From: Candidatus Saganbacteria bacterium
GTDB lineage: Bacteria; Margulisbacteria; WOR-1; XYC2-FULL-46-14; XYC2-FULL-37-10
Length of the DNA: 64,000 nucleotides
Assembly (NCBI GenBank): GCA_016223245.1
Contig: JACRPL010000003.1
Location: 74,078-138,077 of the forward strand
Direction: 5' to 3'
This document shows, one piece after another, positions 11,697-40,597 of this stretch. The notes beneath the pieces are model-generated. The model made no database searches, had not been told where the DNA came from, and saw only the letters and a program-made list of their open reading frames with translations. Numbering within the stretch: position 1 is the first letter of the stretch; each line of letters opens with the position of its first letter. The position numbers were made by a program, and so were the translations under genes.

Positions 11697-11767
11697 TAGG
11701 AACCTGCAAGTGAACCCTGCCTGCCGGTAGGCACGGCTCGCGGTTTCTGAGTTGCTAACCAGTCTCA
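11697..11767 (+). repeat. partial/variant copy of the IS-end-related hairpin repeat (3' half CGCGGTTTCTGAGTTGCTAACCAGTCTCA)
   Basis: Shares the 3' 29 nt with the left ends of IS copies A and B; upstream part replaced by a different hairpin (TGCCTgccggtAGGCA). Confidence 0.5.
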
Positions 11768-13139: not shown

Positions 13140-13611
13140 TGCCGCCTAGGCATGCTTGCCGGTTCTGCTGTAGTAATTTTTGGCTTCATCATGAATGAAC
13201 GACCAATCGAAATCGACCAGTTTAACCAGGATATGAGACGCATAATTGTTCTTGACGTTTTTGGTGAATTCCGCCTCGAAAAGATTTCCGCCGAAACCTT
13301 TTAACTCCTTGAACATAAGACACCTCCTGAATAAGATAAAACAATTATAGCAAACGAGAAAAAGCCGGAAATTCAAGCAGGAGAGAAGCCAATAGAAGTT
13401 GGCAAAATTTCAACAAAGATTTCAAAAAATATTTTTATCGCAATGACAAGATTATTTATCGGCTTTTAAGCTGAATTAGAATAGGGCTTGAGCTCAGTGG
13501 GCTTGACAAGTTATAATGCTATTAGCAAAAGGGCACGAGGAAACCGCGACGCTTGTCCCGATTCCCACATCGGGATTTAGTCGCAGGTTTCCGAGTTGCT
13601 AACTGGTCTCA
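13140..13611 (-). mobile_element. IS5/IS1182-like insertion sequence remnant, copy A (left end + 5' UTR + first 76 codons of transposase)
   Basis: Near-identical to 32095-32510 of copy B; ends in ...GGTCTCA (IRL TGAGACC on the minus strand); transposase truncated at 13146. Confidence 0.6.
13146..13376 (-). pseudogene. transposase N-terminal fragment (DUF772-like, IS5/IS1182 family)
   Basis: MFKELKGFGGNLFEAEFTKNVKNNYASHILVKLVDFDWSFI, nearly identical to the N-terminus of the 31705-32244 ORF; 76 codons only. Confidence 0.55.
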
Positions 13612-14264: not shown

Positions 14265-17200
14265 ATGCAATATAATAATTTTCCAAAAAAACAAGGCCTT
14301 TACGATCCCTCATACGAACATGACAGCTGTGGAGTCGGGTTTTTATGCGATATAAAGGGCAAAAAATCGAACGCAACGGTTTTACAATCCCTTGAGGCAT
14401 TAAGACGGCTTGCTCATCGCGGGGCTACCGGAGCCGACCCAAAAACTGGCGATGGAGCAGGTATTTTGCTTCAAATCCCTCATGATTTCTTAGTCCACGA
14501 ATGTTCTAAGTTAAAGATCGATCTTCCTCAAAGCGGATCTTACGGCACAGGAACTATTTTCTTTCCAAAAGATAAAAAAGACAGGGAATTTTGCAAAGAT
14601 GTGTTCAAGAAAGCCATCGAAGCCGCAGGGCAGAAGCTTTTAGGTTACAGGGACGTTCCTCTTGATAACTCGGTAATTGGCGAAACTGCAAAGCTTACAG
14701 AGCCTGTAATTGAGCAAATCTTTATTGGGAAAGGTCCCTCGACTTCGCTCGGGGTAAACTCCGATGCAGAAAATGAACAATTGGATTTTGGACGAAAGCT
14801 CTATGTAATTCGTAAAGAAGTCGAAACAACGATCCGAAATTCTAGCACCAAACAGAAGTTATTTTTCTATATTACAAATATTTCTTCAAGAACTATGCTT
14901 TATAAAGGATTACTCATGCCGGATCAGGTCGAAAACTTCTTTCTTGACCTGAAAGACCCAAGAATTGTTTCAGCTTTATGCCTTGTCCACTCCCGTTATA
15001 GTACAAATACGTTTCCAACATGGGACCTGGCCCAGCCATTCAGATTTCTTGCCCATAACGGCGAAATAAATACTCTTCGCGGGAATATTAATTGGATGAG
15101 AGCTCGCGAAGGGCTTCTAAAGAGTGAAATGTTCGGATCCGACATCGAAAAATTGAAACCCATTATTGTTCCGGGCGGATCGGATTCTGCCGCGATCGAT
15201 AATGCCTTGGAATTATTGATCTTGTCAGGACGAAGTTTGCCGCATTCAATGATGATGCTTATCCCCGGTGCTTGGGAGCAGAACAAACTGATGGATGAAG
15301 GGTTGAAGGATTTTTATAAATTTCATGCTTGCTTTATGGAGCCATGGGACGGTCCAGCCGCTATGGCTTTTACCGATGGTACAAGAATAGGGGCTTTACT
15401 TGATAGGAACGGATTGCGTCCAGCAAGATACCTGATCACAAAAGATGATAAAGTCTTGATGGCTTCCGAGCTTGGCGTTTTGGACATCGATCCAAAAAAT
15501 ATAAAAGTTTCGGGCCGTCTCGAGCCTGGTAAGATCTTCTTTATCGACACGGAAGAAGGCCGCATTGTAAATGACCATGAAGTCAAGAAAACAATGTCGG
15601 AGAGAAAGCCTTACAGGAAATGGCTTACTGATAATTTAGTGGATCTTGACCAACTCACCCCATCCCTCGCTTCGTTCGGGTTTCCCCCTCTCTTAATAAG
15701 AGAGGGGGATAAAAGGGGTGAGTTATTAACCGAATTGAGTGCTTTCGGCTACACGAGGGAAGACTTAAAGATCGTGATTAAACCTATGGCTGAAACCGGG
15801 AAAGAGCCTATTGGATCGATGGGGAATGATACCCCGATCTCGGTGCTTTCAAAACATTCGCAAAGCCTTTACTCGTACTTTAAGCAATTATTCGCGCAGG
15901 TTACAAATCCACCGATCGATCCTATCCGTGAAGAATGCGTAATGGGGCTTGATAGTTTTGTCGGGTCCCAAAAGAATATTCTCGATGAGACCCCGGAGCA
16001 TTGCCAAAAATTATACGTAAAGCATCCGATATTGACAAATGACGACCTAAATAAAATTGTTGATATCAATATAAATGGATTTAAGACAAAAATCATCTCG
16101 ATCTTGTTCCCAATAAATGACAAGAATAATTTGGTCAAAGCATTGGATAATATTTGTACCGATGCTGTTAAAGCGATAAAAGATGGTTATTCTTTCATAG
16201 TTTTATCCGATAGGGGAGTCGGCAAAGAGAAAGCCGCGATACCCGCATTGCTTGCGGTTGGCGCAGTCCATCAGCATTTGATTAAAAATGCGATGCGTAC
16301 ACAGATCGGCATAATTCTTGAATCCGGCGAACCTCGAGAGGTCCATCATTTTGGCGTTCTGTTCGGATTTGGAGCCGACTGCATCAATCCTTATTTGGCT
16401 TATGAAGTTGTCGAATATTTGATAACCGATAAACAATTAGATATTGATCCGGATATTGCATTGAAGAACTATCGCAAATCAATTGATGCCGGCATGCTTA
16501 AGATCCTCTCAAAAATGGGAATTTCAACTTTGCAAAGTTATCGTGGAGCTCAAATATTTGAAGCGCTTGGAATATCCGACGAAGTAATCGAAAAATGCTT
16601 TACAGGGACGACTTCTCGCATAGGCGGCGTAACGTTTGAAACAATAGCAATAGAAATTTTAGAAAAACATCGAATTGCATATCCAAAAAGGGAAGAAAGC
16701 GGAAGAATTCTTCCTCCGGGAGGCCTATATCAATTCCGCCGCGACGGCGAATTCCATCTTTGGAACCCGGAAAGCATCTCCGCGATCCAGGATGCCGCGA
16801 AAAAAAATGATCACGCAAGGTATAAAGAATTTGCAGCTCTTATAAACGATCAATCTAAGAATCCGACAACTATCAGGGGCGTATTGAAGTTTAAGAAGAC
16901 AAACCCAATTCTGATTGAGTCCGTTGAGCCTATTGGATCTATTTTAAAACGTTTTGTAACAGGGGCCATGAGCTTTGGCTCTATCAGCCGCGGTGCGCAT
17001 GAAACTTTAGCCATTGCCATGAACCATATCCATGGCAGGTCAAATACAGGCGAAGGAGGGGAAGACCCTGCAAGGTTCGCCGACAATAGAAGGTCTGCTG
17101 TCAAGCAAGTAGCTTCCGGCCGTTTTGGCGTCACTACTAACTATTTGGTTAATGCAGATGAGATACAAATAAAGATGGCGCAGGGAGCTAAGCCTGGCGA

Positions 17201-18833
17201 GGGCGGACAGCTTCCCGGCCATAAGGTTTCTGCGATCATAGCAAAAACTCGATACACGACGCAAGGGGTTACTTTAATATCTCCTCCGCCGCACCATGAT
17301 ATTTATTCGATTGAAGACTTGGCACAACTGATATTCGATCTAAAAAATGTCAATCCAAGAGCCATGATTTCAGTAAAACTTGTATCCGAGATCGGGGTTG
17401 GAACTGTTGCCGCCGGTGTCGCTAAAGGCCATGCCGATATGATCTTGGTTTCAGGCGGTGATGGAGGAACAGGGGCATCTCCAATAAGCTCAATTAAACA
17501 TGCCGGGCTTCCCTGGGAGCTTGGGATATCGGAAACCCATCAAACATTGGTATTAAATGATCTGCGATCCCGTGTCAGGCTCCAAACCGATGGCCAAATG
17601 AGGACAGGGCGAGATGTGGCTATCGCCGCGATACTTGGCGCCGAAGAATACGGTTTTTGTACGGCTGCACTGATCGTTATGGGATGCGTAATGCTGCGCC
17701 ACTGCCATTTAAACAACTGTTCAGTTGGAGTTGCGACCCAAGACGATATCTTGGAAGCAAAATTTGCAGGGAATCCGGATCACGTTGTAAATTATTTCAC
17801 TTTCATAGCTTCAGAATTGAGGGAAATAATGGCAAGCCTTGGAATTTCTAAGATCGACGATCTTGTGGGGCGCGTTGACCTGCTTGAAACAAATACGGGC
17901 ATTTTATCTTGGAAATCAAAAGATATCGATCTTTCAAAGGTCCTTTATAAGCCGGAAATCCAAAATAATGTCGGGATCTATCGCACAAAAGAACAGGATC
18001 ACGGCATTGACAATGTATTGGACAGGAAATTGATCAAAATTTCTAAACCTGCATTGAACAGCAGGAAGGCGGTCTTGGAAGAACTTAAGATACAAAACGT
18101 CAACAGGACCACGGGCGCTATGCTTTCCGGTGAAATCTGCAAGCGTTTTGGCGAATCGGGTCTTCCGGATGATACTATTAAATTTAAATTCAATGGTGTT
18201 GCGGGACAAAGTTTTGGCGCATTTTTGGCTAAAGGCGCGACTTTTGAACTCGAGGGCTTTGCGAACGATTATGTCGGCAAAGGGATATCCGGAGGAAAAG
18301 TTATTATTTATCCCGATAAGAACACCGGCTACAAGCCCGATGAAAATATTTTGATCGGCAATACTGCATTTTACGGCGCAATAAATGGCGAAGCATATAT
18401 TAAAGGCGTTGCGGGCGAGAGATTCTGCATCAGGAATTCCGGCCTTAATGGCGTCGTTGAAGGCGTTGGTGACCATGGATGCGAATATATGACCGGCGGG
18501 CACATTGTAATATTGGGCGCGACCGGACGCAATTTCGGCGCAGGGATGTCCGGCGGCGTCGCTTATGTTTATGATCTAGACAAAAAATTCAAGGACAGGT
18601 GCAATTTCGAGATGATAGAACTGCAGGAATTGGACGAAAGGGACCGCGTCGTCCTATACGACCTATTGAGAAAGCATCATTTGAACACGAATTCTCTGAA
18701 GGCGAAGTATATACTGGATAATTTGGACAAAGAAATAAAGAAATTCGTTAAAGTAATGCCCATCGAATATAAAAGGCTTTTAGAACAGAAAAAACTTGAA
18801 GAAAAATTAGCGCTAGACCAAGGAGCAGACTAA
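14265..18833 (+). CDS. gltB: glutamate synthase large subunit
   Basis: 1522 aa; N-terminal Cys1 amidotransferase (HDSCGVGF), central FMN/Fe-S domain, C-terminal GXGXG domain. Confidence 0.95.
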   Translation: MQYNNFPKKQGLYDPSYEHDSCGVGFLCDIKGKKSNATVLQSLEALRRLAHRGATGADPKTGDGAGILLQIPHDFLVHECSKLKIDLPQSGSYGTGTIFFPKDKKDREFCKDVFKKAIEAAGQKLLGYRDVPLDNSVIGETAKLTEPVIEQIFIGKGPSTSLGVNSDAENEQLDFGRKLYVIRKEVETTIRNSSTKQKLFFYITNISSRTMLYKGLLMPDQVENFFLDLKDPRIVSALCLVHSRYSTNTFPTWDLAQPFRFLAHNGEINTLRGNINWMRAREGLLKSEMFGSDIEKLKPIIVPGGSDSAAIDNALELLILSGRSLPHSMMMLIPGAWEQNKLMDEGLKDFYKFHACFMEPWDGPAAMAFTDGTRIGALLDRNGLRPARYLITKDDKVLMASELGVLDIDPKNIKVSGRLEPGKIFFIDTEEGRIVNDHEVKKTMSERKPYRKWLTDNLVDLDQLTPSLASFGFPPLLIREGDKRGELLTELSAFGYTREDLKIVIKPMAETGKEPIGSMGNDTPISVLSKHSQSLYSYFKQLFAQVTNPPIDPIREECVMGLDSFVGSQKNILDETPEHCQKLYVKHPILTNDDLNKIVDININGFKTKIISILFPINDKNNLVKALDNICTDAVKAIKDGYSFIVLSDRGVGKEKAAIPALLAVGAVHQHLIKNAMRTQIGIILESGEPREVHHFGVLFGFGADCINPYLAYEVVEYLITDKQLDIDPDIALKNYRKSIDAGMLKILSKMGISTLQSYRGAQIFEALGISDEVIEKCFTGTTSRIGGVTFETIAIEILEKHRIAYPKREESGRILPPGGLYQFRRDGEFHLWNPESISAIQDAAKKNDHARYKEFAALINDQSKNPTTIRGVLKFKKTNPILIESVEPIGSILKRFVTGAMSFGSISRGAHETLAIAMNHIHGRSNTGEGGEDPARFADNRRSAVKQVASGRFGVTTNYLVNADEIQIKMAQGAKPGEGGQLPGHKVSAIIAKTRYTTQGVTLISPPPHHDIYSIEDLAQLIFDLKNVNPRAMISVKLVSEIGVGTVAAGVAKGHADMILVSGGDGGTGASPISSIKHAGLPWELGISETHQTLVLNDLRSRVRLQTDGQMRTGRDVAIAAILGAEEYGFCTAALIVMGCVMLRHCHLNNCSVGVATQDDILEAKFAGNPDHVVNYFTFIASELREIMASLGISKIDDLVGRVDLLETNTGILSWKSKDIDLSKVLYKPEIQNNVGIYRTKEQDHGIDNVLDRKLIKISKPALNSRKAVLEELKIQNVNRTTGAMLSGEICKRFGESGLPDDTIKFKFNGVAGQSFGAFLAKGATFELEGFANDYVGKGISGGKVIIYPDKNTGYKPDENILIGNTAFYGAINGEAYIKGVAGERFCIRNSGLNGVVEGVGDHGCEYMTGGHIVILGATGRNFGAGMSGGVAYVYDLDKKFKDRCNFEMIELQELDERDRVVLYDLLRKHHLNTNSLKAKYILDNLDKEIKKFVKVMPIEYKRLLEQKKLEEKLALDQGAD
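15652..15724 (+). repeat. 73-bp palindromic element (TIR AACTCACCCC/GGGGTGAGTT), in-frame inside gltB
   Basis: Reverse complement of the intergenic copy at 26728-26800; encodes ...FGFPPLLIREGDKRGELL... within gltB. Confidence 0.7.
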
Positions 18834-20269
18834 TGGTTGGGGATCCAAGAGGATTTTTAAAAAACAAAAGGATCGCATCGGAATACCGTCCGGTTTGCGA
18901 ACGCGTAAAAGATTATAAACAGGTCTTTGTATTAAGGCCCGATGAAGTGACGCGCGAGCAAGCTCGCCGCTGTATGGATTGCGGAACGCCCTTTTGCCAT
19001 TCAGGATGTCCTATAGGCAATATTATCCCCGAATGGAATGAATTTATATATCACAATCAGTGGCAAAAAGCATTCGATATGCTTAATTCGACAAACAATC
19101 TTCCTGAAATTACCGGCCGTGTATGTCCTGCGCCATGTGAATATGCATGTGTATTAGGCATTAACAATGATCCGGTAACAATTCGTGAAAATGAGCTTGG
19201 AATAATCGAACATGCATTCAAGGAAGGCCTAATTAAAGCAAATCCGCCAAAAGTCCGCACAGGGAAATCAGTTGCTGTCGTAGGATCCGGTCCTGCTGGC
19301 CTTTCATGCGCCGCACAGCTAAATAGCGCAGGACATAAAATCACCGTTTTTGAAAGAGATGAGCAACTCGGCGGCATTATGCGCTATGGTATCCCTGATT
19401 TCAAACTCGAAAAGAGTGTCTTAGACCGAAGAATTGATATTTGGAAGCAGGAAGGCATTGAATTTAAGACAAACACTAATATTGGGAAAGATATTCCTGC
19501 AGAAAAGCTTACAAAAGAATTTGATGCCGTGTGTTTAACAGGCGGCGCGAAATTTCCAAGAGACCTTGCAATAGAAGGACGAAATCTTAAAGGCATTTAT
19601 TTCGCCATGGAATATTTAACCCAATCAAACAAACTTATTGCTGGTGCAAATATAACAGATCCGATTTCTGCAAAGGGAAAGAGTGTTGTAGTTATAGGCG
19701 GCGGCGATACGGGATCTGATTGTGTCGGAACAGCAAATAGGCAGGGAGCTTCATGCGTTGTTCAAATTGAATTAATGCCTATGCCTTCAAAAGATAGGAC
19801 TGAAAACTTCACATGGCCTAAATATCCTTTAATTCTAAAGACTTCTTCAAGCCACGAAGAAGGTGTTACCCGAAAGTGGTCAATTATGACAAAGTCATTT
19901 AAGGGTCAAGGCCATGCCTACCGGCAGGCAGGGTCAAGGGTAATGGGGCTTGAATGTATGCAAGTCGATGAAAAATTGAAAGAGATACCAGGGACAGAAT
20001 TTGAGATCAAAGCTGATCTCGTTTTTCTTGCTTTGGGTTTCTTGGGGCCTGAAAAAACAGGAATGATAACCGAGCTTAGGCTGGAACTCGATCCAAGGTC
20101 AAATATTAAGACCGATGCTAATTATATGACATCGCGCAAAGGCGTGTTCTCGGCAGGAGATATGCGCCGTGGACAATCGCTAATTGTTTGGGCGATATCT
20201 GAAGGGCGCAAGGCCGCGCGGTTAATCGATGAATACTTGGTCGGCGATTCAACTCTGCCTATAATGTAG
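18833..20269 (+). CDS. gltD: glutamate synthase small (NADPH) subunit
   Basis: 478 aa; two Cys clusters and VAVVGSGPAGLSCAAQL FAD/NAD fold; ATG overlaps the gltB stop. Confidence 0.9.
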   Translation: MVGDPRGFLKNKRIASEYRPVCERVKDYKQVFVLRPDEVTREQARRCMDCGTPFCHSGCPIGNIIPEWNEFIYHNQWQKAFDMLNSTNNLPEITGRVCPAPCEYACVLGINNDPVTIRENELGIIEHAFKEGLIKANPPKVRTGKSVAVVGSGPAGLSCAAQLNSAGHKITVFERDEQLGGIMRYGIPDFKLEKSVLDRRIDIWKQEGIEFKTNTNIGKDIPAEKLTKEFDAVCLTGGAKFPRDLAIEGRNLKGIYFAMEYLTQSNKLIAGANITDPISAKGKSVVVIGGGDTGSDCVGTANRQGASCVVQIELMPMPSKDRTENFTWPKYPLILKTSSSHEEGVTRKWSIMTKSFKGQGHAYRQAGSRVMGLECMQVDEKLKEIPGTEFEIKADLVFLALGFLGPEKTGMITELRLELDPRSNIKTDANYMTSRKGVFSAGDMRRGQSLIVWAISEGRKAARLIDEYLVGDSTLPIM

Positions 20270-20312
20270 AAGTCCCGTTGAAATTTTCAAATTTTTCTCA
20301 AGATATACTAAT

Positions 20313-21134
20313 ATGCTTACTGTTTTACATGTAAATACGGCATCCGCCTTAAGGATGAGCGAAACTTTATTCGAGGCTCTGGCTCCGAAAGTATCGCTGA
20401 GGTTCAGGCCATTGCTCAATCCTTATCATCCGCTCCAGACAAAGCTTCGTGAAATAATGCCCGGCGCATATATCCATAGTTTATGCGTTGGGTCTGCCGC
20501 GGCAATAGCCGCAAGCCACATTGGCGCAAATGCAGATCTTGCAAGATGCATCGGGATTTACCATGATACGGGAAAGCTCGCTAATCCGGATTTTTTTGCA
20601 GGCGCAGTTTCCGGCGACAGGCTTCAGGCTCTAACAATAAAGGACAAGCAAGAATTGGCATTATTGCTCCTTCATCCATGGAATTCAGCCAGAATTCTTG
20701 GCCAATATCAGGGGTTTCCTCCCAAGGTTTTGGAAGGTGTTGAACAGCATCACGGCCGCATGCGGACGTATGCCAATATTGGCGCTGCATTATTGGGAAC
20801 AATAACAGAGCCCGACCTGCATTACCCGGGGACTCTGCCAACAACCAAAGAAGCGGCCCTTGTGATGATAGCCGATAACTCGGAAGCGTATCTTGCCAAA
20901 TTGTACAGGGATAATAGGATACCAAATGATCCTACCAGGAAATTCTTTCGAGGTGTTGTCCATAAGGTTATACTTGATTTGATGGGGACAAATCAATTTT
21001 CCAACAGCCATCTTACAATACCTGAGATCGAAAAAGCCGAAGGCATTATAATGTGGTTCTTTTATCGGTATTACAACGGCCTTCCCATAGACCACACCCC
21101 AGACCAGTTCCGCAAGCACGACCGCTCTGCGTAG
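20313..21134 (+). CDS. HD-domain phosphohydrolase-like protein
   Basis: 273 aa with YHDTGKL and later HH motif; visibly GC-richer codon usage than neighbours. Confidence 0.55.
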   Translation: MLTVLHVNTASALRMSETLFEALAPKVSLRFRPLLNPYHPLQTKLREIMPGAYIHSLCVGSAAAIAASHIGANADLARCIGIYHDTGKLANPDFFAGAVSGDRLQALTIKDKQELALLLLHPWNSARILGQYQGFPPKVLEGVEQHHGRMRTYANIGAALLGTITEPDLHYPGTLPTTKEAALVMIADNSEAYLAKLYRDNRIPNDPTRKFFRGVVHKVILDLMGTNQFSNSHLTIPEIEKAEGIIMWFFYRYYNGLPIDHTPDQFRKHDRSA

Positions 21135-21240
21135 CAGCGCCTCTAAGGCGCTGAAATTATAGCAAACGACCGAGCCTAAGAGGCTCGGCTACGCGGAGTA
21201 AGTAATCCTTTTTCTGCAGGCCATGATATAATTCTTACAA

Positions 21241-22125
21241 ATGAACAGGATATTGCATAAAGACAAGCTCTCGGAAAATACTTCAAAAATAATAGTTGAA
21301 ACTCCTCATATTGCAAATGCCGCAAAACCGGGACAGTTTATTGTCGTTGTGCCTACAGAGAAGGCCGAAAGGATCCCTTTGACCATAGCCGACCATGATA
21401 TTAAAAAGGGAACGATAACGATAATTTTTCAAATAATCGGGGCAACAACAAAAGTGTTGGATTCTCTAAAAGCCGGAAATGAAATTGCGCATCTTTTGGG
21501 TCCTTTGGGCGTTCCGTCCGAGATCGAAAAGTTCGGAAGGGTTGTCATTATCGGCGGTGGGGTTGGAATTGCCGAGATCTATCCTCTAGTTAAGTCGCTA
21601 AAAGAAACTGGCAATGAAGTCGTTTCGATAATTGGTGCTAGAAACAAAGACCTATTGATCTATGAAGAAGAACTTAGATTACAGAGCACGGATCTTCGGG
21701 TTGCAACTGATGACGGATCTTCTGGAATTAAGGGGTTCGTCTCGGATATCTTAATGGAAATGATCTCTAAAAAAGAGAAAATTGATAGGGTAATAGCCGT
21801 AGGGCCGACTCCGATGATGAAAGTCATATGTGATATCACAAAACCATATAAAATAAGGACGATTGTTTCGCTAAATACCCTAATGCTTGATGCAACAGGC
21901 ATGTGTGGTATTTGCAGGATAACTGTCGGCGGGAAAATTAAGTTTTCGTGCGTCGATGGCCCCGAATTTGACGGGCATGAAGTCGATTTTGTCGAATTAT
22001 CTTCTCGGTTAAGAATGTTTAAAGATGTTGAAAAGCAAGCAATGGATCATGTTTGCAGGCTTATGACCCCCACTGACCCTTCGGAACATCTCCCCATGGC
22101 TAAGGGGGAGAATGAGAGGGGGTAA
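21241..22125 (+). CDS. NfnA/SudB-like ferredoxin-NADP+ reductase subunit (PyrK family, FAD + 2Fe-2S)
   Basis: 294 aa; FAD/NAD binding pattern and C-terminal GMCGICR cluster. Confidence 0.7.
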   Translation: MNRILHKDKLSENTSKIIVETPHIANAAKPGQFIVVVPTEKAERIPLTIADHDIKKGTITIIFQIIGATTKVLDSLKAGNEIAHLLGPLGVPSEIEKFGRVVIIGGGVGIAEIYPLVKSLKETGNEVVSIIGARNKDLLIYEEELRLQSTDLRVATDDGSSGIKGFVSDILMEMISKKEKIDRVIAVGPTPMMKVICDITKPYKIRTIVSLNTLMLDATGMCGICRITVGGKIKFSCVDGPEFDGHEVDFVELSSRLRMFKDVEKQAMDHVCRLMTPTDPSEHLPMAKGENERG

Positions 22126-22135
22126 AAGGTTTACT

Positions 22136-23542
22136 ATGGCTGAAAAAATACCAAAACAAGAAATGATAAATAGGCCGGCAACGGATAGAATAAAAAATTT
22201 TGAGGAAGTTCCATTAGGTTATACCGTCGATCAAGCTATTGCCGAAGCAAATAGATGCCTGCAATGTAAAAGCCCCAAATGTGTCGCGGAATGTCCAGTT
22301 GAAGTCGATATCCCCGCATTTATAAAATTTGTAGCTAAAGGCGACTTTGAATCAGCTGTCAAAAAAATAAAAGAAACAAATTCACTTCCGGCTATTTGCG
22401 GCCGAGTCTGTCCCCAAGAAGAACAATGCGAAATGAAGTGTATTATCGGCATTAAAGGAAAATCGGTCGGGATCGGTAATCTAGAAAGATTTGTTGCCGA
22501 TTGGGAAAGAAGCAAACTCACCCCCAACCCCTCTCTTGTTAAGAGAGGGGTGCCGAACGAAGTGAGGCGAGGTGAGTTAGTTGCTGTTATTGGCAGCGGC
22601 CCATCAGGACTTGCATGTGCTGGAGACCTTGCTATTCTTGGATATCAAGTCACAGTATTTGAATCGCTTCATGTAACCGGCGGAGTTTTGACTTACGGGA
22701 TCCCCGAATTCCGTTTACCCAAGAAGATCGTCGATCTTGAGATACAATACGTTAAAAGTTTAGGCGTTGAGATAAAAACCGATATGCTGATTGGCAATGT
22801 ATATACGATAAATGATCTCTTAAAAGAATATAAGGCTGTTTTTATTGGATCAGGCGCCGGTCTTCCAAAGTTCATGGGAATTGTCGGTGAGAATTATGAT
22901 GGTGTCTATTCCGCGAACGAGTTTTTGTTCCGCGTAAATATGATGAAAGCATGGAAATTTCCGGAATACTTAACTCCGATAAAGATCGGCAAACGTGTTG
23001 CTGTTGTCGGCGGCGGCAATGTGGCGATGGACGCGGCCAGGGTCTCATTAAGGCTTGGCGCCGATGAAGTCTATTTAATCTACAGGAGAACAGAAAAAGA
23101 AATGCCTGCTCGCCGTGAAGAGATCCATCGCGCGAAAGAAGAGGGGATAATATTCAAAGAGCTGACACTTCCTGCAAAATACCACAGGGGTGAAAATGGA
23201 TGGATAACCGATCTTGAATGCATCCAAATGGAACTTGGGGATACTGACTCTTCAGGCAGGAGAAAACCCGTAGAAATTAAGAGCTCAAATTTCAAAATTC
23301 CGATTGATACAGCTGTTGTCGCTATTGGCAATTCTCCAAATCCTTTGGTCCCGCTTCGCACCCAAAACCTCAAAACACATTCATGGGGCGGAATAATAAT
23401 TACAGAAGATGCACAAACTTCGATCAATAATGTTTATGCCGGTGGAGATATTGTCCGAGGCGCCGCTACGGTAATTTCCGCAATGGGCGACGGGAAAAAG
23501 GCCGCGAAAGAGATCAATAAGCTTTTATCGTCAAATAAATAA
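22136..23542 (+). CDS. NfnB/SudA-like (GltD-family) NADPH oxidoreductase subunit
   Basis: Start at MAEKIPKQ (ORF track 22112); two 4Fe-4S Cys clusters and VAVIGSGPSGLACAGDL; paired with the PyrK-like gene. Confidence 0.75.
   Translation: MAEKIPKQEMINRPATDRIKNFEEVPLGYTVDQAIAEANRCLQCKSPKCVAECPVEVDIPAFIKFVAKGDFESAVKKIKETNSLPAICGRVCPQEEQCEMKCIIGIKGKSVGIGNLERFVADWERSKLTPNPSLVKRGVPNEVRRGELVAVIGSGPSGLACAGDLAILGYQVTVFESLHVTGGVLTYGIPEFRLPKKIVDLEIQYVKSLGVEIKTDMLIGNVYTINDLLKEYKAVFIGSGAGLPKFMGIVGENYDGVYSANEFLFRVNMMKAWKFPEYLTPIKIGKRVAVVGGGNVAMDAARVSLRLGADEVYLIYRRTEKEMPARREEIHRAKEEGIIFKELTLPAKYHRGENGWITDLECIQMELGDTDSSGRRKPVEIKSSNFKIPIDTAVVAIGNSPNPLVPLRTQNLKTHSWGGIIITEDAQTSINNVYAGGDIVRGAATVISAMGDGKKAAKEINKLLSSNK
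22515..22578 (+). repeat. 64-bp variant of the AACTCACCCC...GGTGAGTT palindromic element, in-frame inside the nfnB-like gene
   Basis: AACTCACCCCCaaCCCCTCTCTTgtTAAGAGAGGGGtgCCGAACGAAGtGAGGcgaGGTGAGTT; encodes ...KLTPNPSLVKRGVPNEVRRGEL... Confidence 0.6.
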
Positions 23543-24670
23543 TAGTGCTATCCAAAAAAGAAAATTTACCGCCGATCCGCTCAAGTACGGCAAATTACTG
23601 TGCATCGCGAGCGCGAACCCGCCAAAAATAGGCCCTGCAATTCGCCCTAAGCTATCGATGGATTGCATTGCTCCCATTGTAGCCCCTTCATCTATCTCTG
23701 TCCTTTTGGAGATTAGAGATGCCAAGCTTGGGCGGCAAAGGCCAGCTCCCGCGCTTGCAATTCCAACAAAGATCATCAGAGAAATAAAATCATATGAAAA
23801 GATCGTAAGGAGATAACCGATCGAAGATAATATCAGGCCGATCTTAACGATGTTTTCTTCCCCGAACCTTTTAATTAATCGGCCTATCAGCATGCCTTGG
23901 ATAATTACTATCACAACACCCATTGAGACAAATATCCAGCCCATTTCGACCGCTCCAAAATTCAGCTTGTCTTTCGCGAAAAGCGAGAATGTGCCTTCAA
24001 AATTCGCGGTCGAGAATGAAACGACAAAAACCAGGAAAAACGCGAAGGCCAAAAACCCCCTAAGCGACAGCAGGTGTTTGAACCTATTGTATTCGACCTC
24101 GCTGCGGCTTCGTTTTTTCTTTGATTCTTTCAGGAATATTGCCGCAAAGAGGAGATTTATTACGGCTAAGACTGCAGAGAAAAAGAACGGCGCGCTAAAG
24201 TGCAATATGGAAAATAAGCTTCCGATAGCAGGACCTACAATTACGCCAAGGCCCATTGCGGCGCCCATTAGGCCCATTCCATGGCCACGGTTTTCCGTAT
24301 CGGTCACATCAGCGACATATGCCATAGCCGTCGGAAGGCATGCAGAAGATAGTATCCCGCCTAATATCCTCGAGGCAAAAAGCATCAGAAGGCTGTCCGC
24401 AATGCCGAAAAGAACGAATGAAACGGCAAATCCCGCAAGACCTATCAGGATTATGGGCTTTCTCCCGTATTTATCAGAAAGTGATCCCCAAACAGGCGAA
24501 AAGATAAACTGCATCAGCGAATAGCTTGCCATAAGCAAGCCTATTTGGAACGAGGTCGCGCCCAGGTTCAGCGAAAAAAAGGGGAGGATCGGGAGTATTA
24601 TCCCAAAACCGGCCATGACTAAAAACATGGTCATGAACAATATTATTATCCCGGAATTTCTTAATCCCAT
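23531..24670 (-). CDS. MFS transporter
   Basis: 379 aa, 12 predicted TM, MFS motif region (GSLSDKYGRKPIIL). Confidence 0.75.
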   Translation of the reverse strand: MGLRNSGIIILFMTMFLVMAGFGIILPILPFFSLNLGATSFQIGLLMASYSLMQFIFSPVWGSLSDKYGRKPIILIGLAGFAVSFVLFGIADSLLMLFASRILGGILSSACLPTAMAYVADVTDTENRGHGMGLMGAAMGLGVIVGPAIGSLFSILHFSAPFFFSAVLAVINLLFAAIFLKESKKKRSRSEVEYNRFKHLLSLRGFLAFAFFLVFVVSFSTANFEGTFSLFAKDKLNFGAVEMGWIFVSMGVVIVIIQGMLIGRLIKRFGEENIVKIGLILSSIGYLLTIFSYDFISLMIFVGIASAGAGLCRPSLASLISKRTEIDEGATMGAMQSIDSLGRIAGPIFGGFALAMHSNLPYLSGSAVNFLFWIALLFI

Positions 24671-24671
24671 G

Positions 24672-25562
24672 TTAAAAATTATTTTCTATGATCTTTCTTG
24701 TTTCATCCATATTCAAAAGGATAACGCTTCCCGCGGCGTTGTTGCCGGGGTCTCCAGGCAAAGTGATGCTCCTAAAGTTATTTTTCGGCATCATTCTCAT
24801 ATTATTTGCAAGCATAATGAAGCCTTTCAGACTTAAGTCGCTTTTGACGTTTACCCTAATGAGGTTGATGATGAACGGAGCTTTGATGATCGATTGGAAA
24901 GACGCAAGCCTTGAAGATAATGCATTCAAAAATTTCTGCTGGCGTTCAATGCGCCCTAGGTCGCCTAAGGCATCGTGCCTGAACCGCACATATTCCTCGG
25001 CCTGCTTCCCGCTCAACCTCTGCCATCCGGCCTTGAGATTTATAAAAAGTCCCTGGGCTCGGTCGATGTAAAACATGTCTTTATCAACGTTTATTAGGAC
25101 GCCGCCTAGAAGGTCTACAAGTTTAGGCAGGGTCGCGGTATTTACAATCAGATATTTATCGATCGGGATATCGAGAAGTTTTTCGATCGTTGCCTTAGTA
25201 AGGCTTATTCCGCCCAAAACAAAGGCGGCATTTATTTTATTGTATCCAAACCCCGGCACTGCAACATATGAATCCCTTGGTATCGAAACAATATTCAGCC
25301 GGTTCACCAGCGGGTCGACATGAAGGACCATGATCGAGTCGCTGCGGCCGCTTTCCGAAATGATCTTCCCGGTTTCGGCGTTGGTGTCGAGATCGGTCCC
25401 GATGACCAAGATATTCATTGGGCGGCCGATGATGCCGAATTTTATGATAAATGGGATATGGGCGGGGAAAAATAAATTCGTGTAAAAGTAAATTATTCCC
25501 AGGAACAGGACGATTATCCCGATAAGCCTCAACCAATCGACATGTTTCCCGGTTTTTGTCAT
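24672..25562 (-). CDS. LytR-CpsA-Psr (LCP) family protein
   Basis: N-terminal TM then LCP core (NILVIGTDLD...GRSDSIMVLHVD...VSIPRDSYV). Confidence 0.75.
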   Translation of the reverse strand: MTKTGKHVDWLRLIGIIVLFLGIIYFYTNLFFPAHIPFIIKFGIIGRPMNILVIGTDLDTNAETGKIISESGRSDSIMVLHVDPLVNRLNIVSIPRDSYVAVPGFGYNKINAAFVLGGISLTKATIEKLLDIPIDKYLIVNTATLPKLVDLLGGVLINVDKDMFYIDRAQGLFINLKAGWQRLSGKQAEEYVRFRHDALGDLGRIERQQKFLNALSSRLASFQSIIKAPFIINLIRVNVKSDLSLKGFIMLANNMRMMPKNNFRSITLPGDPGNNAAGSVILLNMDETRKIIENNF

Positions 25563-26203
25563 TTCTTTTCGTAGCCGATCGGGATAAGGAGCAATGGTTC
25601 GTGGTCGGGCGGAAGGCTCATTGAAGCCGCAACGACATCGTCCCAGAACGAACCGACACAGACTGTTTTAAGGCCTAAAGCTGTCGCCTGAAGGAGAAGA
25701 TTTTCTGATGCAGTACCAGCTTCTATGTAGACATATCTTTCGGCTCGGCTGCCGAATTTTGTCCTTGTTTTATTATAGTTTGCCGAAACAATAACAATAA
25801 AAGGAGCTTCAGCTACAAAAGTCTGCGCTAGCGCGGCTCGGGCCAAGCTTTGCCGCTTATCGCCTTTTACGATAACCTCAAGTTTATGCTCTAATGGCAG
25901 GTAATGGTATACGCCGGTCTTGTCCACGGCATATATTTCCAACGGGTATAGGCTGCCTGCGGACGGCGCCGACCTGAAATTCCATTGTGGGTCAGTTATA
26001 CCTTGGCACGCCCATAATAATTGGGATATCTGGGTTGAATTTAGCGGCGTTTCGAGGAATGATCTTTCCGATCGCCTTCGATAAATTGCTTCTTCGAGCG
26101 ACATTTGTCCTGTTGATCTTGACTGCGGGAGAGTTATTGTTTCGGCATAAGCCAAAGAGCAGAATACAATTAGGATGAGAGAGGTTATTATGCGCTTTCG
26201 CAT
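25559..26203 (-). CDS. SagB-type dehydrogenase / nitroreductase-family protein (secreted/lipoprotein-like N-terminus)
   Basis: Start moved to MRKRIITSLILIVF (ORF track starts 26353); nitroreductase-fold pattern. Confidence 0.55.
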   Translation of the reverse strand: MRKRIITSLILIVFCSLAYAETITLPQSRSTGQMSLEEAIYRRRSERSFLETPLNSTQISQLLWACQGITDPQWNFRSAPSAGSLYPLEIYAVDKTGVYHYLPLEHKLEVIVKGDKRQSLARAALAQTFVAEAPFIVIVSANYNKTRTKFGSRAERYVYIEAGTASENLLLQATALGLKTVCVGSFWDDVVAASMSLPPDHEPLLLIPIGYEKK

Positions 26204-26275
26204 AAAAACTATTATAACATAAGGTATTTTAAAGGCAAAATCCCGTAGCAATGCATGCGCATTGTACGGGATAAA

Positions 26276-26314
26276 CCCCGCAGCATGCTGCAGCATGATA
26301 CGGGGCTTTTTATT
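26276..26314. terminator. bidirectional hairpin terminator downstream of ssb
   Basis: CCCCGcaGCATGCTGCAGCATGatACGGGG followed by CTTTTTATT (plus) / TTTAT (minus). Confidence 0.45.
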
Positions 26315-26663
26315 ATACAGAAGCGGTTTCTTTTTGCTTTTTTGGGAAATCAAGCATTTGTACGCCTTCAGCTACAATTTCTGTCGAGGTGCGGTTGTTG
26401 CCTTCCTTATCTTTGTACTTGCTTATCTGAATCCTTCCGTCTACCGCAACGAGCCTTCCTTTCTTAAGGTATTCTCCGCAAATTTTTGCAAGAGGACCCC
26501 AGGCGATGCAATTGAAGAAATCAACTTCCTTTACTCCTTCCTTTTTGAAAGGCCTTTCAACTGCGATCGAAAACCTTGTGATCGGGTTTTCTTTCGAAGT
26601 AAATCGGGTTTCCGGGTCGGCCGTTAATCGTCCAATAAGCATGGTCTTGTTTAATGATGCCAT
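26313..26663 (-). CDS. ssb: single-stranded DNA-binding protein (OB fold), lacks the acidic C-terminal tail
   Basis: Start at MASLNKTMLIGRL; SSB OB-fold pattern; ends ...DFPKKQKETASV without DDDIPF-type tail. Confidence 0.7.
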   Translation of the reverse strand: MASLNKTMLIGRLTADPETRFTSKENPITRFSIAVERPFKKEGVKEVDFFNCIAWGPLAKICGEYLKKGRLVAVDGRIQISKYKDKEGNNRTSTEIVAEGVQMLDFPKKQKETASV

Positions 26664-26727
26664 CGTATTCACCTCCTTTTTTCTAAGATATTTTTGATTA
26701 CACAAGATACACAGCAATTATCGCGCC

Positions 26728-26800
26728 AACTCACCCCCTTAATCCCCCTCTCTTAATAAGAGAGGGGGAAACCCGAGCAAAGCGAGGGAGGGGGTGAGTT
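26728..26800 (+). repeat. 73-bp palindromic element, intergenic copy
   Basis: AACTCACCCCC...CCCCCTCTCTTAATAAGAGAGGGGG...GGGGGTGAGTT; nested inverted repeats. Confidence 0.7.
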
Positions 26801-26842: not shown

Positions 26843-27913
26843 ATGGACGAAAACATAACAATTTTTCGGAAATGCGGCACATATGACCAGGTTGAAGTAT
26901 TCAATTCGATAACTTCAGCCCTTGAGCCGCTAGGCGGCATAGGAAGATTTGTTAAACCGGGGCAAAAAGTATTGCTTAAGCCAAATATCTTGGCCGGTTA
27001 CAGTCCGGATAAAGCCGTAACGACTAATCCAGAAGTTATACGGGCGATCATTCGTCTGGTTAGGTTGGCTGGCGCCCATGCATTCGTCGGTGAAAGCCCC
27101 GGATTTGGAACTGCCGAGAAAATGTCAAAAATTACCGGCATTAAGAAGGTACTTGATGAAGAAAAAGTAGACCTGATCGAATTTAAAACACCCAAAGAAG
27201 TAAATTTCCCGGATGGGAAAAAATTCAAAAGAATAACTGTCGCGGCGGAAGTCTATGGCTATGATGTTTTGATAAATATCCCGAAATTTAAGACCCATGT
27301 GCTTACCGGAACTACTAATGCCGTAAAAAATCTTTTTGGATGCGTTCCCGGCCTTTTAAAGAGCCAATATCATTATAAAATAAAAGAACGCGAGCCTTTT
27401 ATTGAGCTCCTCGAAGATCTGGCGAGATTAATTAAACCGAAATTGACGATAATGGACGCGGTATTGGCAATGGAGGGGGAAGGCGGGCCTGCTGGCGGGA
27501 CGCCAAGACATTTGGGAATTATTGGCGCGACATCGGATCCCTTCGATATCGACCAATTGATGCTTAAGATCATTAACGGGGAAAACATCCAAGGGTTTTC
27601 TTGTCCCGATTTTAAAAAGATAAATATCTTGCCAAGCAATGTCGAATTTTTGCCGCTTTCATTTTTATTAAGCTTTATCAATAAGAACTTTTCCGATAAA
27701 CCTGTGATCGATCCCAAAAAATGCGTCAATTGCAAGATTTGTATCAATGTATGCGCCGCAAAAGCTATGTCCGTCGGATCCAAAAATCCTGTTTACGATT
27801 ATGGCAAATGCATAAGATGCTTCTGCTGCCAGGAAATGTGCCCGGAAAGAGCTATATTTGTAAAAAAGAACATGATATCGGATCTTTTGGCCAAGATATT
27901 TAATCGAAAATAA
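26843..27913 (+). CDS. DUF362-domain protein with C-terminal 2x[4Fe-4S] ferredoxin domain
   Basis: 356 aa; DUF362-like N-region; two CxxCxxCxxxCP motifs near the C-terminus. Confidence 0.6.
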   Translation: MDENITIFRKCGTYDQVEVFNSITSALEPLGGIGRFVKPGQKVLLKPNILAGYSPDKAVTTNPEVIRAIIRLVRLAGAHAFVGESPGFGTAEKMSKITGIKKVLDEEKVDLIEFKTPKEVNFPDGKKFKRITVAAEVYGYDVLINIPKFKTHVLTGTTNAVKNLFGCVPGLLKSQYHYKIKEREPFIELLEDLARLIKPKLTIMDAVLAMEGEGGPAGGTPRHLGIIGATSDPFDIDQLMLKIINGENIQGFSCPDFKKINILPSNVEFLPLSFLLSFINKNFSDKPVIDPKKCVNCKICINVCAAKAMSVGSKNPVYDYGKCIRCFCCQEMCPERAIFVKKNMISDLLAKIFNRK

Positions 27914-31372: not shown

Positions 31373-31704
31373 GTTGAGAAATGTCTTTGTTGGCTCGCCC
31401 GAGGCTAAGGCTCGCCAACCGTTTTTCATAGAAATTTCAAGCCGTTTTGAATTCAGTAAGGCCAAGAGAAAACTTTTTGAATTTTTATTGATTAAGACAA
31501 CCGACATACCCCGAGCGCAAGCTCGAGGGAATATGAGTCTTTTTAGCCCCCTGATATAATTGGAGACAGGTTAGGAAGCGAACATTTTCCGACGGTTTTT
31601 GAAACTAAGCAATTTTTTGAGAGTTTTCCGAGGTTCTAATCTCTAATTGCTGGTTTTTTCTTTCCCATCACCTCCATTCCCCCAATTTTGGAAACAGTTA
31701 ATCC

Positions 31705-32244
31705 TTATGCCGCCGTAGCGGCCGGTTCCAAGGGCGGAGGAGCAGCGAATATTTTCTTGAGATTGTATGCCATGTAAGTTAGCAAAGATTGGGCATGTGT
31801 CTTAAGCTCGCCCCAGTAGCGCGATCTTTTCAGGCGATAACTGCGCTTGCCAACGGCAAAAGGCACCTCGACCATACAGCGCATGCTCCGGGCGTAAACA
31901 TAATCATCGTTGCTTTCTTTAAAAGAGACATTGAGGAAAAAACGGAAAAGAATGTAGAGATTGATGAGTTCTTCAAGCTGGTAGTCGGAATTAAGCTGCA
32001 TCGCCTCTTTAAGAAAAAGTATCTTAAACATCAAAACCGGATCGAAAGCACTCTGGCCATTCTTACTATAGCAATTCTTCGCTTCCTCACGGATGAACGA
32101 CCAATCGAAATCGACCAGTTTAACCAGGATATGAGACGCATAATTGTTCTTGACGTTTTTGGCAAATTCTGCCTCGAAGAGATTCCCGCCGAAACCTTTT
32201 AACTCTTTGAACATAAGACACCTCCATAGAAATGATACAACCAT
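31705..32244 (-). pseudogene. internally deleted transposase (IS5/IS1182 family: N-terminal DUF772-like segment joined to C-terminal ...LLTYMAYNLKKI tail)
   Basis: 179 aa, far shorter than typical transposases of this family; C-terminal AYNLKK motif typical of IS1182/IS5 transposases. Confidence 0.55.
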
Positions 32245-32484
32245 TGTAGCAAATGGCTAAAAAGCTAAAATTGAAATAGGCTAGCCGACTGGGGCGGGCT
32301 TTCTTTTTTGGACAAAAATCCTAAAAATATTTTTTTATCGCCACAAAGAACATCTGACGATTGCTTAATGGCTAGATAAAATGAGGGTTGAGCCCGTGGG
32401 GCTTAACAAGGTATAATGCTATTAGTGAAAGGCTCGAAGAAACCGCGACGCTTGTCCCGATTCCCACATCGGGATTTAGTCGCT

Positions 32485-32499
32485 GGTTTCTGAGTTGCT
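32485..32499 (+). promoter_or_regulatory. sigma-54-like -24/-12 motif embedded in the IS left end, facing outward toward rarA
   Basis: CTGGTTTCTGAGTTGCTA: GG-N10-GC with TTGC at -12; same motif in the copies at 11745-11759 and 13587-13601. Confidence 0.35.
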
Positions 32500-32750
32500 A
32501 ATCGGTCTCATCTTTTCTGATTTGCGACCTTTAATTACGCGAATGCGCGATTTTCTTAAGTTGGTATTAAAAGAATTTGCCGCCAACTGCTTGAAAAGCA
32601 GGCAAGCACAACTTATAATTAGTGTAGCTTGCAGCAAAACTTGAAATCGTCCTTTCCGCCTGCCGAGTCCAGAGAATTTCGCTCGGATATTTTCAAACAG
32701 ACACCGTTCAAACATATAACAAATTGTGATATGTTTGATATACTTATCCC

Positions 32751-40087: not shown

Positions 40088-40597
40088 AATGGCGCAAGCA
40101 TTTCTTGCTGGAGAAGATGTTGAAAAGGCAAAAAAAGAGATCGAAGCGACAAGGCCTATGGCGGAAGAGAAAAAGAAATTCAAAATCTCAACATCATTGA
40201 TTTTGTTATCCCGAAAAACAATCAGGCTTTCTGGAAGCAATGGAAGGAAAGCAATGATGATTACGTTTATGCCCGCAATATGCGGCCGATTTGCGAGAAA
40301 CCTTTTGCGGTCGGCAAGCGCAGTTATCGCCTCAAACGATGCCGCTACTGGGGATTACTCAAGACTCATGCCCAATCATTGCTGACTTACATGTCTTACA
40401 ATCTCAAAAAGATTTTTGCCCCGCCGCCTTTAGAACCGGCCGCGATTGCGGCCTAAGGGATAACTGCGCCCAAAATCGGGAAAATGGAGGTGATGGGAAA
40501 AGAAAAAACAGAAATTAGAGGTTAGATACTCAAAACTACTCAAAAAATCGATCGTTTTAAAAACCCTTCGGAAAATATTCGCTTCCTACCCGGTCTC
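40088..40597 (+). mobile_element. IS5/IS1182-like remnant copy C (70-bp duplicated mtnA fragment + transposase 3' end + right IR ...CCGGTCTCA)
   Basis: 40088-40160 is a ~90%-identical copy of 42220-42290 (mtnA); 40250-40450 encodes ...RSYRLKRCRYWGLLKTHAQSLLTYMSYNLKKIFAPPPLEPAAIAA, matching the C-terminus of the copy-B transposase. Confidence 0.55.

Follow-up and report, generated by a model that had tools for sequence, protein, structure and literature searches.

How does one short palindromic sequence come to lie in the reading frames of two core enzymes and again between genes of the same genome? The question is raised by a 64,000-nt stretch of contig JACRPL010000003.1 (hereafter, the window), the source of which is, by its best protein matches, a Candidatus Saganbacteria metagenome-assembled genome (MAG). 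A sequence of 73 bp, or of 64 bp in one variant, occurs there three times, namely in gltB, in an NfnB/GltD-like gene (referred to below as NfnB) and in an intergenic region. The explanation that we regard as probable is that these copies belong, as short forms that are not autonomous, to a very widespread family of structured palindromic repeats, similar to MITEs (miniature inverted-repeat transposable elements) or to REPINs (inverted pairs of repetitive extragenic palindromic, or REP, sequences), for which a DUF559 protein would be the cognate nuclease. The copies and their host genes are as follows.

15652 to 15724, minus strand: element copy of 73 bp in gltB, with inverted repeats at 15652-15661 and 15715-15724, the second hairpin at 15664-15680 and the main hairpin at 15683-15709; translated as GltB residues 463-487 (LTPSLASFGFPPLLIREGDKRGEL).
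22515 to 22578, plus strand: element variant of 64 bp in NfnB, with the left repeat at 22515-22524, the main hairpin at 22527-22551, the second hairpin at 22552-22568 and the right repeat at 22569-22578 (GAGGTGAGTT); translated as residues 135-156 (LTPNPSLVKRGVPNEVRRGEL).
26728 to 26800, plus strand: intergenic copy of 73 bp, with the left repeat at 26728-26737, the main hairpin at 26743-26769, the second hairpin at 26772-26788 and the right repeat at 26791-26800.
14265 to 18833, plus strand: gltB, glutamate synthase large subunit, 1522 aa, assigned from its open reading frame (ORF), Pfam domains and orthologues.
22112 to 23542, plus strand: NfnB/GltD-like gene ('NADPH-dependent glutamate synthase, homotetrameric'), 476 aa; the database start is 22136.

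All three copies were re-found at the positions given by the first-pass annotation of the window. Their core, CCCCTCTCTTnnnAAGAGAGGGG, occurs three times in the window when up to three mismatches are allowed, against 0.00 expected from 100 dinucleotide-preserving shuffles, and each copy is bounded, as annotated, by 10-nt terminal inverted repeats, AACTCACCCC and GGGGTGAGTT, with one mismatch in the NfnB copy (GAGGTGAGTT). The intergenic copy had been described as opposite in orientation to the genic ones; this holds for the gltB copy, which is its reverse complement (92% identity over 73 nt), whereas the NfnB copy is oriented like the intergenic one. With a covariance model made from these copies, no fourth match was found in the 64 kb at E ≤ 0.1, and Rfam gave no family at the gathering score in the window, only chance-level hairpin matches over the intergenic copy. 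Both genic copies are inside unbroken ORFs, the frame being kept as had been proposed: 73 and 64 are not multiples of three, and the in-frame segments measure 75 and 66 nt with flanking bases. An assembly artefact is excluded for the NfnB copy, because the locus is also present in an independent Logan assembly (SRR12113407), where it is 99.9% identical overall and has exactly this 64-mer.

In both proteins the element peptide lies precisely in the gap between two Pfam domains, in agreement with the inter-domain linker sites suggested at first. In GltB, residues 463-487 separate GATase_2 (22-453) from Glu_syn_central (491-771), and in NfnB, residues 135-156 separate Fer4_20 (26-135) from Pyr_redox_2 (157-461). 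Among 119 orthologues the GltB linker is variable, Lys-rich and about 13 residues long, versus 25 in the window protein, which totals 1522 aa compared with roughly 1507-1512 aa in most orthologues. Most GltB orthologues have no element, and the net gain is about 11-12 aa. The closest one (P0122, 81% identity) carries a decayed copy at the same site, in which AACTCACCCC is kept and followed by 27 diverged nt and then by TAAGAGAGGGGA, with no right repeat. The NfnB linker spans the same range of 15-30 aa in all orthologues, with a net gain of about 0-7 aa, and therefore the element replaces sequence rather than adding to it. The elements thus substitute for a variable, Lys-rich linker of 13-20 aa in both host proteins. 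The first-pass annotation had the inter-domain linker sites right, but plain insertions of about 25 and 21 residues are not what the alignments show.

A linker position of this kind, which tolerates any sequence and has a similar length in the orthologues, could make one ask whether there is an element in the genes at all, or only a conserved or convergent linker peptide with nucleotide similarity as a by-product. This is contradicted by the NfnB copy and hardly credible. The NfnB orthologues P0002 (79% identity) and P0003 (76%, from another Saganbacteria MAG) have the element at the identical site, and among the three sequences it shows 94-95% nucleotide identity, with 90-95% at third codon positions, versus 68-72% and 39-47%, respectively, in the remainder of the gene. 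No other 22-codon window of NfnB matches that identity, and the high-identity stretch starts and stops exactly at the inverted repeats; the positions that do vary include the hairpin loop (GTT, AAT, ATT). Moreover, the sequence recurs between genes and, reversed, with a different peptide as its product, and hundreds of non-coding copies exist elsewhere, with conserved inverted repeats. Orthologues that share the peptide carry the nucleotide repeat too, and both refuting conditions named in the first-pass annotation thus turned out in favour of the element.

Judged by these orthologues, the NfnB insertion is an old one, common to other Saganbacteria. Conversion from paralogous copies was considered as a cause of its conservation and rejected, since the two remaining copies in the window (gltB and intergenic) belong to a different variant. 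The simplest reading would be purifying selection on the nucleotide sequence of the NfnB copy. Its near-invariance at the nucleotide level argues that it is constrained as a nucleic-acid structure or binding site and not just tolerated as a peptide; candidate reasons for its upkeep are an mRNA hairpin between the two cofactor-binding domains, a DNA-binding site, or maintenance linked to a nuclease. Further NfnB orthologues carry other subfamily members in the linker, one (P0015) a full element some 90 bp long, whose ends read ACCTCACCC...GGGGTGAGGA, and two (P0023 and P0004) partial units, making the NfnB linker a recurrent landing or retention site.

Folded as single-stranded RNA or DNA, each window copy forms a three-way junction, in which the two 10-mers pair as the outer stem. 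The RNA free energies of -33 to -49 kcal/mol (z-scores -5.1 to -7.6) indicate a very stable fold. In the main hairpin a 12-bp stem, with an all-pyrimidine 5′ arm and an all-purine 3′ arm, closes a loop of 3 nt; the 'perfect palindrome' annotated here is accurate for the stem, which is perfect over 11-12 bp, but not for the loop, which is non-palindromic. The small second hairpin reads CCC-GA-GC-AAA-GC-GA-GGG in the window copies. Across the family the main stem measures 10-12 bp, with the same pyrimidine 5′ and purine 3′ arms, and optional modules may follow it, e.g. a mini-hairpin with a conserved GA(A/G)CGAAG(T/C)GAG loop. In an alignment fitted to the model, compensatory changes occur at 24 of 26 pairs, and changes on both sides of a pair amount to 265 cells versus 92 in shuffles, a value that none of 500 shuffles reached. 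The swaps are mostly CG to UA or the reverse, so that the 5′ arm stays pyrimidine. The small tail stems also covary around a conserved loop (CCC/GGG, GCC/GGC, GGTC/GACC, GATC/GATC).

The repeats extend far beyond Saganbacteria. At least 120 loci with the core pattern, each taken as 8 kb, were found in about 20 phylum-level groups of a collection of contigs with one genome per species; the window's own source is absent from the loci listed. The matches listed include Saganbacteria, Margulisiibacteriota, Ignavibacteria, Melioribacteraceae, several Bacteroidota families, Fibrobacterota, Zixibacteria, Calditrichia, Aminicenantes, Latescibacterota, Cloacimonadota, Chrysiogenia, Omnitrophota, KSB1, Marinimicrobia, Anaerolineaceae, Scalindua, cyanobacteria with Sericytochromatia, Binatia, and Magasanikbacteria and Gracilibacteria of the Candidate Phyla Radiation (CPR). 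In nearly all of them AACTCACCCC or GGGGTGAGTT lies a few nt from the core; variants of this 10-mer tag are CCCTCACCCC and ACCTCACCCC. A copy from a Chitinispirillaceae MAG (L026) even has the tail module of the window copies. Pairing of left and right ends in the window and the fetched loci gave 88 pairs, most of them with 10-nt inverted repeats, in size classes of 53-57, 64-74, 81-94, 110-160 and 484-536 (660) bp. The 81-94-bp forms consist of two hairpins, and arrays also occur.

The family is mostly intergenic, with read-through ORFs at about 7 of 74 small elements; a gene for an M1-peptidase fusion protein plausibly contains one of these in frame. An adaptation of the elements towards freedom from stop codons was rejected, open frames numbering 2.08 of 6 versus 1.90 in shuffled and 2.26 in random genomic sequence. 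Phage carriage as a vector of spread is unsupported, as elements are rare in viral contigs (four stretches in 3 of 2.9 million). A concatenated multi-frame element peptide identified no other host protein at E ≤ 0.01, such short queries being uninformative, and a 30-aa window peptide gave one marginal match among 1.84 billion representatives, the query being too short to inform.

Which enzyme might act on these repeats is suggested by the long forms of about 0.5 kb, which have the ends and hairpins of the short forms around one ORF of about 120 aa. This ORF encodes DUF559, a Vsr-like PD-(D/E)XK endonuclease. In a Saganbacteria MAG (JAPLLA01, locus L001), for example, a 122-aa DUF559 ORF (PF04480, E = 3e-31), with PDB 3HRL, an 'endonuclease-like protein' (E = 1.5e-25), as its closest solved relative, lies between a left and a right unit; the same MAG also holds the in-frame NfnB copy (L122). 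Among the matches listed, DUF559 ORFs lie between or beside units in 8 of the 120 hairpin-seeded loci. In a census of neighbours, 144 ORFs were within 250 bp of a hairpin, of which seven were DUF559, every other family being represented at most twice. No transposase family was present among the 25 families listed of the 122 matched in the 8-kb loci. PADLOC and PHROGs gave only marginal matches for the DUF559 protein, and a PDDEXK_3 gene in L122 has no flanking repeats of this family.

At L001, the full-length DUF559 element (2118-2632) occupies the entire spacer of two convergent genes. The last two bases of its right repeat overlap the stop of the downstream, minus-strand aspartate-carbamoyltransferase-like ORF (GAGTT|A), and the element may have supplied that stop codon.

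The association also holds in the reverse direction. In 80 metagenome loci picked by DUF559 homology alone, strict motifs were found within 250 bp of the DUF559 gene in 40, and a relaxed scan placed a unit near 57 of 77 DUF559 genes. A model built from Saganbacteria-type copies only gave 73 matches, 61 of which lie within 200 bp of a DUF559 ORF versus 13.9% expected (p ~1e-40). In total, the DUF559 loci hold 134 units in 248 kb, compared with 1 in shuffled sequence. The loci without strict motifs contain diverged analogues, e.g. AACCTCACCC with CCCTCTCC..GGAGAGGG.

Some DUF559 genes lie within arrays of 4-9 elements at a spacing of about 100-200 bp (L170 1100-2800, L175 1748-2564, L138 500-860). 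The L170 arrays are made up of tandem units of about 190-206 bp and recall the REP clusters around genes of REP-associated tyrosine transposases (RAYTs).

If the family is read as we propose, the 0.5-kb DUF559 unit would be the longer relative, with identical ends, of the short elements, and the elements would be moved or maintained by DUF559, in parallel with RAYTs and their REP or REPIN sequences. The substrate of DUF559 would be folded DNA (a hairpin or cruciform), perhaps cut in a structure-specific way where an extruded cruciform has its base, or as a single strand. That folded DNA is recognised, and not duplex ends, is suggested because target-site duplications are lacking, the stems covary and the arms are pyrimidine and purine, respectively. 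Of 82 elements, one is flanked by a 2-nt duplication and none by one of 3-5 nt, nor does any longer inverted repeat extend beyond the 10-mers; a DUF559 nuclease acting on folded DNA would fit such insertion without duplication. Two copies would then have landed in the Lys-rich, length-tolerant inter-domain linkers of GltB and NfnB, kept the frame and largely displaced the native linker, being now translated.

The perfect 10-nt terminal inverted repeats, small size, high copy number and presence in both orientations are also those of classical MITEs, i.e. deletion derivatives of an insertion sequence with a DDE transposase that are mobilised in trans, in which case DUF559 would be a mere passenger or neighbour. 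Known MITEs (Correia, ERIC, BOX, and the cyanobacterial Nezha and Anabaena elements) are likewise small, non-coding and dispersed, with occasional in-frame fusions. However, DDE transposition normally leaves the target-site duplication that these elements lack, and no DDE family was found to recur beside them in the census (25 families listed of 122) in which DUF559 accounted for seven of the 144 ORFs. The covariation of the stems, in addition, fits a folded single strand and not a duplex binding site. A parent insertion sequence would be expected to share the ends of the short elements; the forms of about 0.5 kb do share them and encode DUF559, which is not a recognised transposase. One locus does speak for a DDE parent: on a Scalindua contig (L042, 569-2103), an IS481-like (rve) transposase ORF of 375 aa is bounded by a left end on one side and a right end on the other. 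It is the sole such case seen in more than 120 loci, and the rve ORF probably belongs to an insertion sequence nested in, or between, elements. Overall, we consider the MITE explanation quite improbable.

The repeats could instead be of the REP/REPIN type and be moved by a Y1 HUH transposase, either a RAYT or an IS200/IS605-like TnpA, encoded elsewhere in the genome, with DUF559 accumulating in REP-rich spots. The architecture matches in several respects: a tag adjoins the hairpin, inverted pairs form a larger hairpin, clusters and arrays occur, target-site duplication is absent, single-stranded structure matters, and a small nuclease gene is flanked by its presumed target repeats. As a RAYT is typically encoded once per genome, it would seldom be met inside 8-kb loci. 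On the other hand, the enzyme here is a PD-(D/E)XK protein and not a Y1 HUH one, the tag is the 10-mer AACTCACCCC and not GTAG or CGTC, and no Y1 family is among the recurrent neighbours (25 families listed of 122, 8-kb loci). Whereas REP sequences are normally species-specific, the repeat described here is common to many phyla and also occurs inside genes. Furthermore, in the survey that started from the protein, 84% of the elements detected have a DUF559 gene no more than 200 bp away, which is how RAYTs relate to their own REPs. IS200/IS605 elements and the palindrome-associated transposable elements (PATEs) derived from them share hairpins and the absence of target-site duplication with this family, which differs from them in its clear inverted repeats and in having no TnpA or TnpB beside the elements among the families listed. 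Both the MITE and the RAYT explanation are weakened by the lack of target-site duplication taken with the neighbour census, and the latter appears unlikely.

A third alternative concerns the nuclease. Vsr-like (EDxHD) homing endonucleases such as I-Bth0305I represent Vsr-fold nuclease genes that behave as selfish DNA (PMC2677866, PMC3239194), and DUF559 might similarly be a parasite that uses the repeats as landing sites, while these would spread or persist otherwise or be structural or regulatory motifs of the host. That the ORF is found within an element, adjoining complete elements, or between two complete direct copies would agree with this, as would the conservation of the NfnB copy as though it were functional. 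The proteins of the I-Bth0305I type, though, reside in phage group I introns or inteins at one conserved home site, in contrast to DUF559, which is a free-standing gene bounded by hairpin repeats in many contexts, between unrelated genes, while the short forms have no ORF. A parasitic role would also leave unexplained the spread of short elements with conserved ends to unrelated sites in about 20 phyla, and the full-length and short forms have equal ends, as in an autonomous/non-autonomous pair. We therefore hold this alternative to be improbable.

Several observations nevertheless weigh against the proposal that DUF559 is the cognate nuclease of the repeats. The link between DUF559 and the repeats is positional only, and there is no DUF559 gene within the 64-kb window. 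The layouts at DUF559 loci are heterogeneous, comprising a left unit, the ORF and a right unit, complete small elements on one or both sides (in some loci directly after the stop codon), or arrays, and the DUF559 gene could be a guest homing into the repeats and not their mobiliser. DUF559 sequence and repeat class co-vary weakly (51.9% versus 50.3% identity, p = 0.003). The alignment that gave the covariation had been fitted to the model, and palindromic matches entered it with both of their strands; the taxon labels were taken from the titles of MAG records. Lastly, no pair of filled and empty sites with alignable flanks was obtained, L001 having no synteny with the window for such a comparison.

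A broader proposal, which we put forward tentatively as a possibility and with less confidence than the one for the window, is that DUF559 proteins are the enzymes of a class of minimal DNA, mobile or self-maintaining, that is pan-bacterial and has not been recognised before. This class would comprise units of about 0.5 kb with the order hairpin, nuclease gene, hairpin, together with their 53-160-bp derivatives; its members would move or be homogenised by structure-specific cleavage of folded DNA without target-site duplication, and some derivatives, such as that in the NfnB linker, would have been exapted and be retained today because selection acts on their nucleic-acid structure within a coding sequence.

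Palindromic repeats that lie in frame are as such a known kind, to which the Rickettsia palindromic elements (RPEs) and some MITEs belong. RPEs are short palindromic repeats found in frame in unrelated housekeeping genes, translated, and located at places where the fold tolerates them (PMC10969869). The family described here is similarly present in frame in protein-coding genes without disrupting them, so the RPE precedent drawn in the first-pass annotation stands in functional terms; it does not extend to lineage specificity, as the present repeats occur in many phyla and are tied to a DUF559 gene. RPEs measure about 100-150 bp, are confined to Rickettsia and, to our knowledge, have no associated enzyme. 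By comparison, the present family ranges from 53 to 160 bp, covers about 20 phyla, is mostly intergenic and has DUF559-bearing relatives of about 0.5 kb; the window element is shorter and more G+C-rich than RPEs, and its host is a member of Saganbacteria, not Rickettsia. Literature searches with the 10-mers returned unrelated primer matches only, and searches on DUF559, Vsr-like homing, RPEs, in-frame MITEs and REPIN/RAYT systems found no paper describing the repeat family or its link with DUF559. No prior description was thus found in the literature for the cross-phylum conservation, the 0.5-kb DUF559 form, the specific, reciprocal association with DUF559 or the nucleotide constraint on a genic copy.

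The window holds a second, unrelated mini-palindrome of 20 bp, CCTGCCTGCCGGCAGGCAGG, in three copies (11716-11735, 19913-19932 and 59634-59653). One is in frame in gltD, where it corresponds to a 7-aa insertion (GHAYRQA) that is absent from the 79%-identical orthologue of L121; another encodes TMPAGRQV near the N-terminus of FeoB, and the third is intergenic. The same sequence is nested in DUF559-type elements of other phyla (L081, L169) and also occurs in L010, L116 and L150. This modular, nested build, with CCTGCCTGCCGGCAGGCAGG inside larger elements, resembles that of the small dispersed repeats (SDRs) of heterocyst-forming cyanobacteria (Elhai et al. 2008), which are reportedly very short, nested palindromic units, at times located inside coding sequence. 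SDRs are restricted to a single cyanobacterial group, and we know of no protein associated with them.

Other features of the window are as follows. The gene order downstream of gltB and around the intergenic copy is:

18833 to 20269: gltD.
Between gltD and the NfnA-like gene: HD-domain gene.
21241 to 22125: NfnA-like gene, 5′ of the NfnB-like gene.
25559 to 26353, minus strand: nitroreductase-family gene, divergent from the next gene across the intergenic copy.
26843 to 27913, plus strand: DUF362/4Fe-4S gene, the ATG of which is 43 nt from the end of the intergenic copy.

At 13150-13611 and 32048-32510 the window has two copies, 88-92% identical, of a non-coding segment some 460 bp long, and incomplete ones are present at 183-265 and 11742-11767. 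A long hairpin, GGAAACCGCGACGCTTGTCCCGATTCCCACATCGGGATTTAGTCGC(A/T)GGTTTC, is conserved in this segment, one of the copies is found upstream of a cluster of a small ORF, a PIN gene and gltB, and Rfam gave no match for it even at E ≤ 1. Between about 4900 and 9500 there are three tandem amtB-glnK (P-II) pairs with a period of about 1750 bp, compared with two such pairs at the sister locus L121. Two more repeats are probably paralogous gene segments that have diverged: one inverted, of about 360 nt (31563-31920 versus 40244-40597), with 78-81% complementarity and about 8.3 kb between its arms, and one direct, of 74 nt (40083-40156 versus 42214-42287), with 92% identity at a distance of 2.1 kb.

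We found no function assigned to DUF559 proteins, although nucleases of this Vsr-fold type are abundant. If the proposal is true, this very large orphan family would gain a function and a testable substrate, and the elements would represent a nuclease-based counterpart to the REPIN-RAYT system and be among the smallest gene-bearing repeat units known, present in about 20 phyla, among them the CPR and further lineages that are uncultured. For MAG annotation, such repeats are a source of spurious small ORFs and odd linker peptides. Palindromic DNA repeatedly rewrites the inter-domain linkers of core enzymes (GltB and NfnB, and also GltD and FeoB), and at least one insert is conserved far above the synonymous expectation; a DNA or RNA structure that derives from a repeat can therefore be under constraint within a coding sequence.

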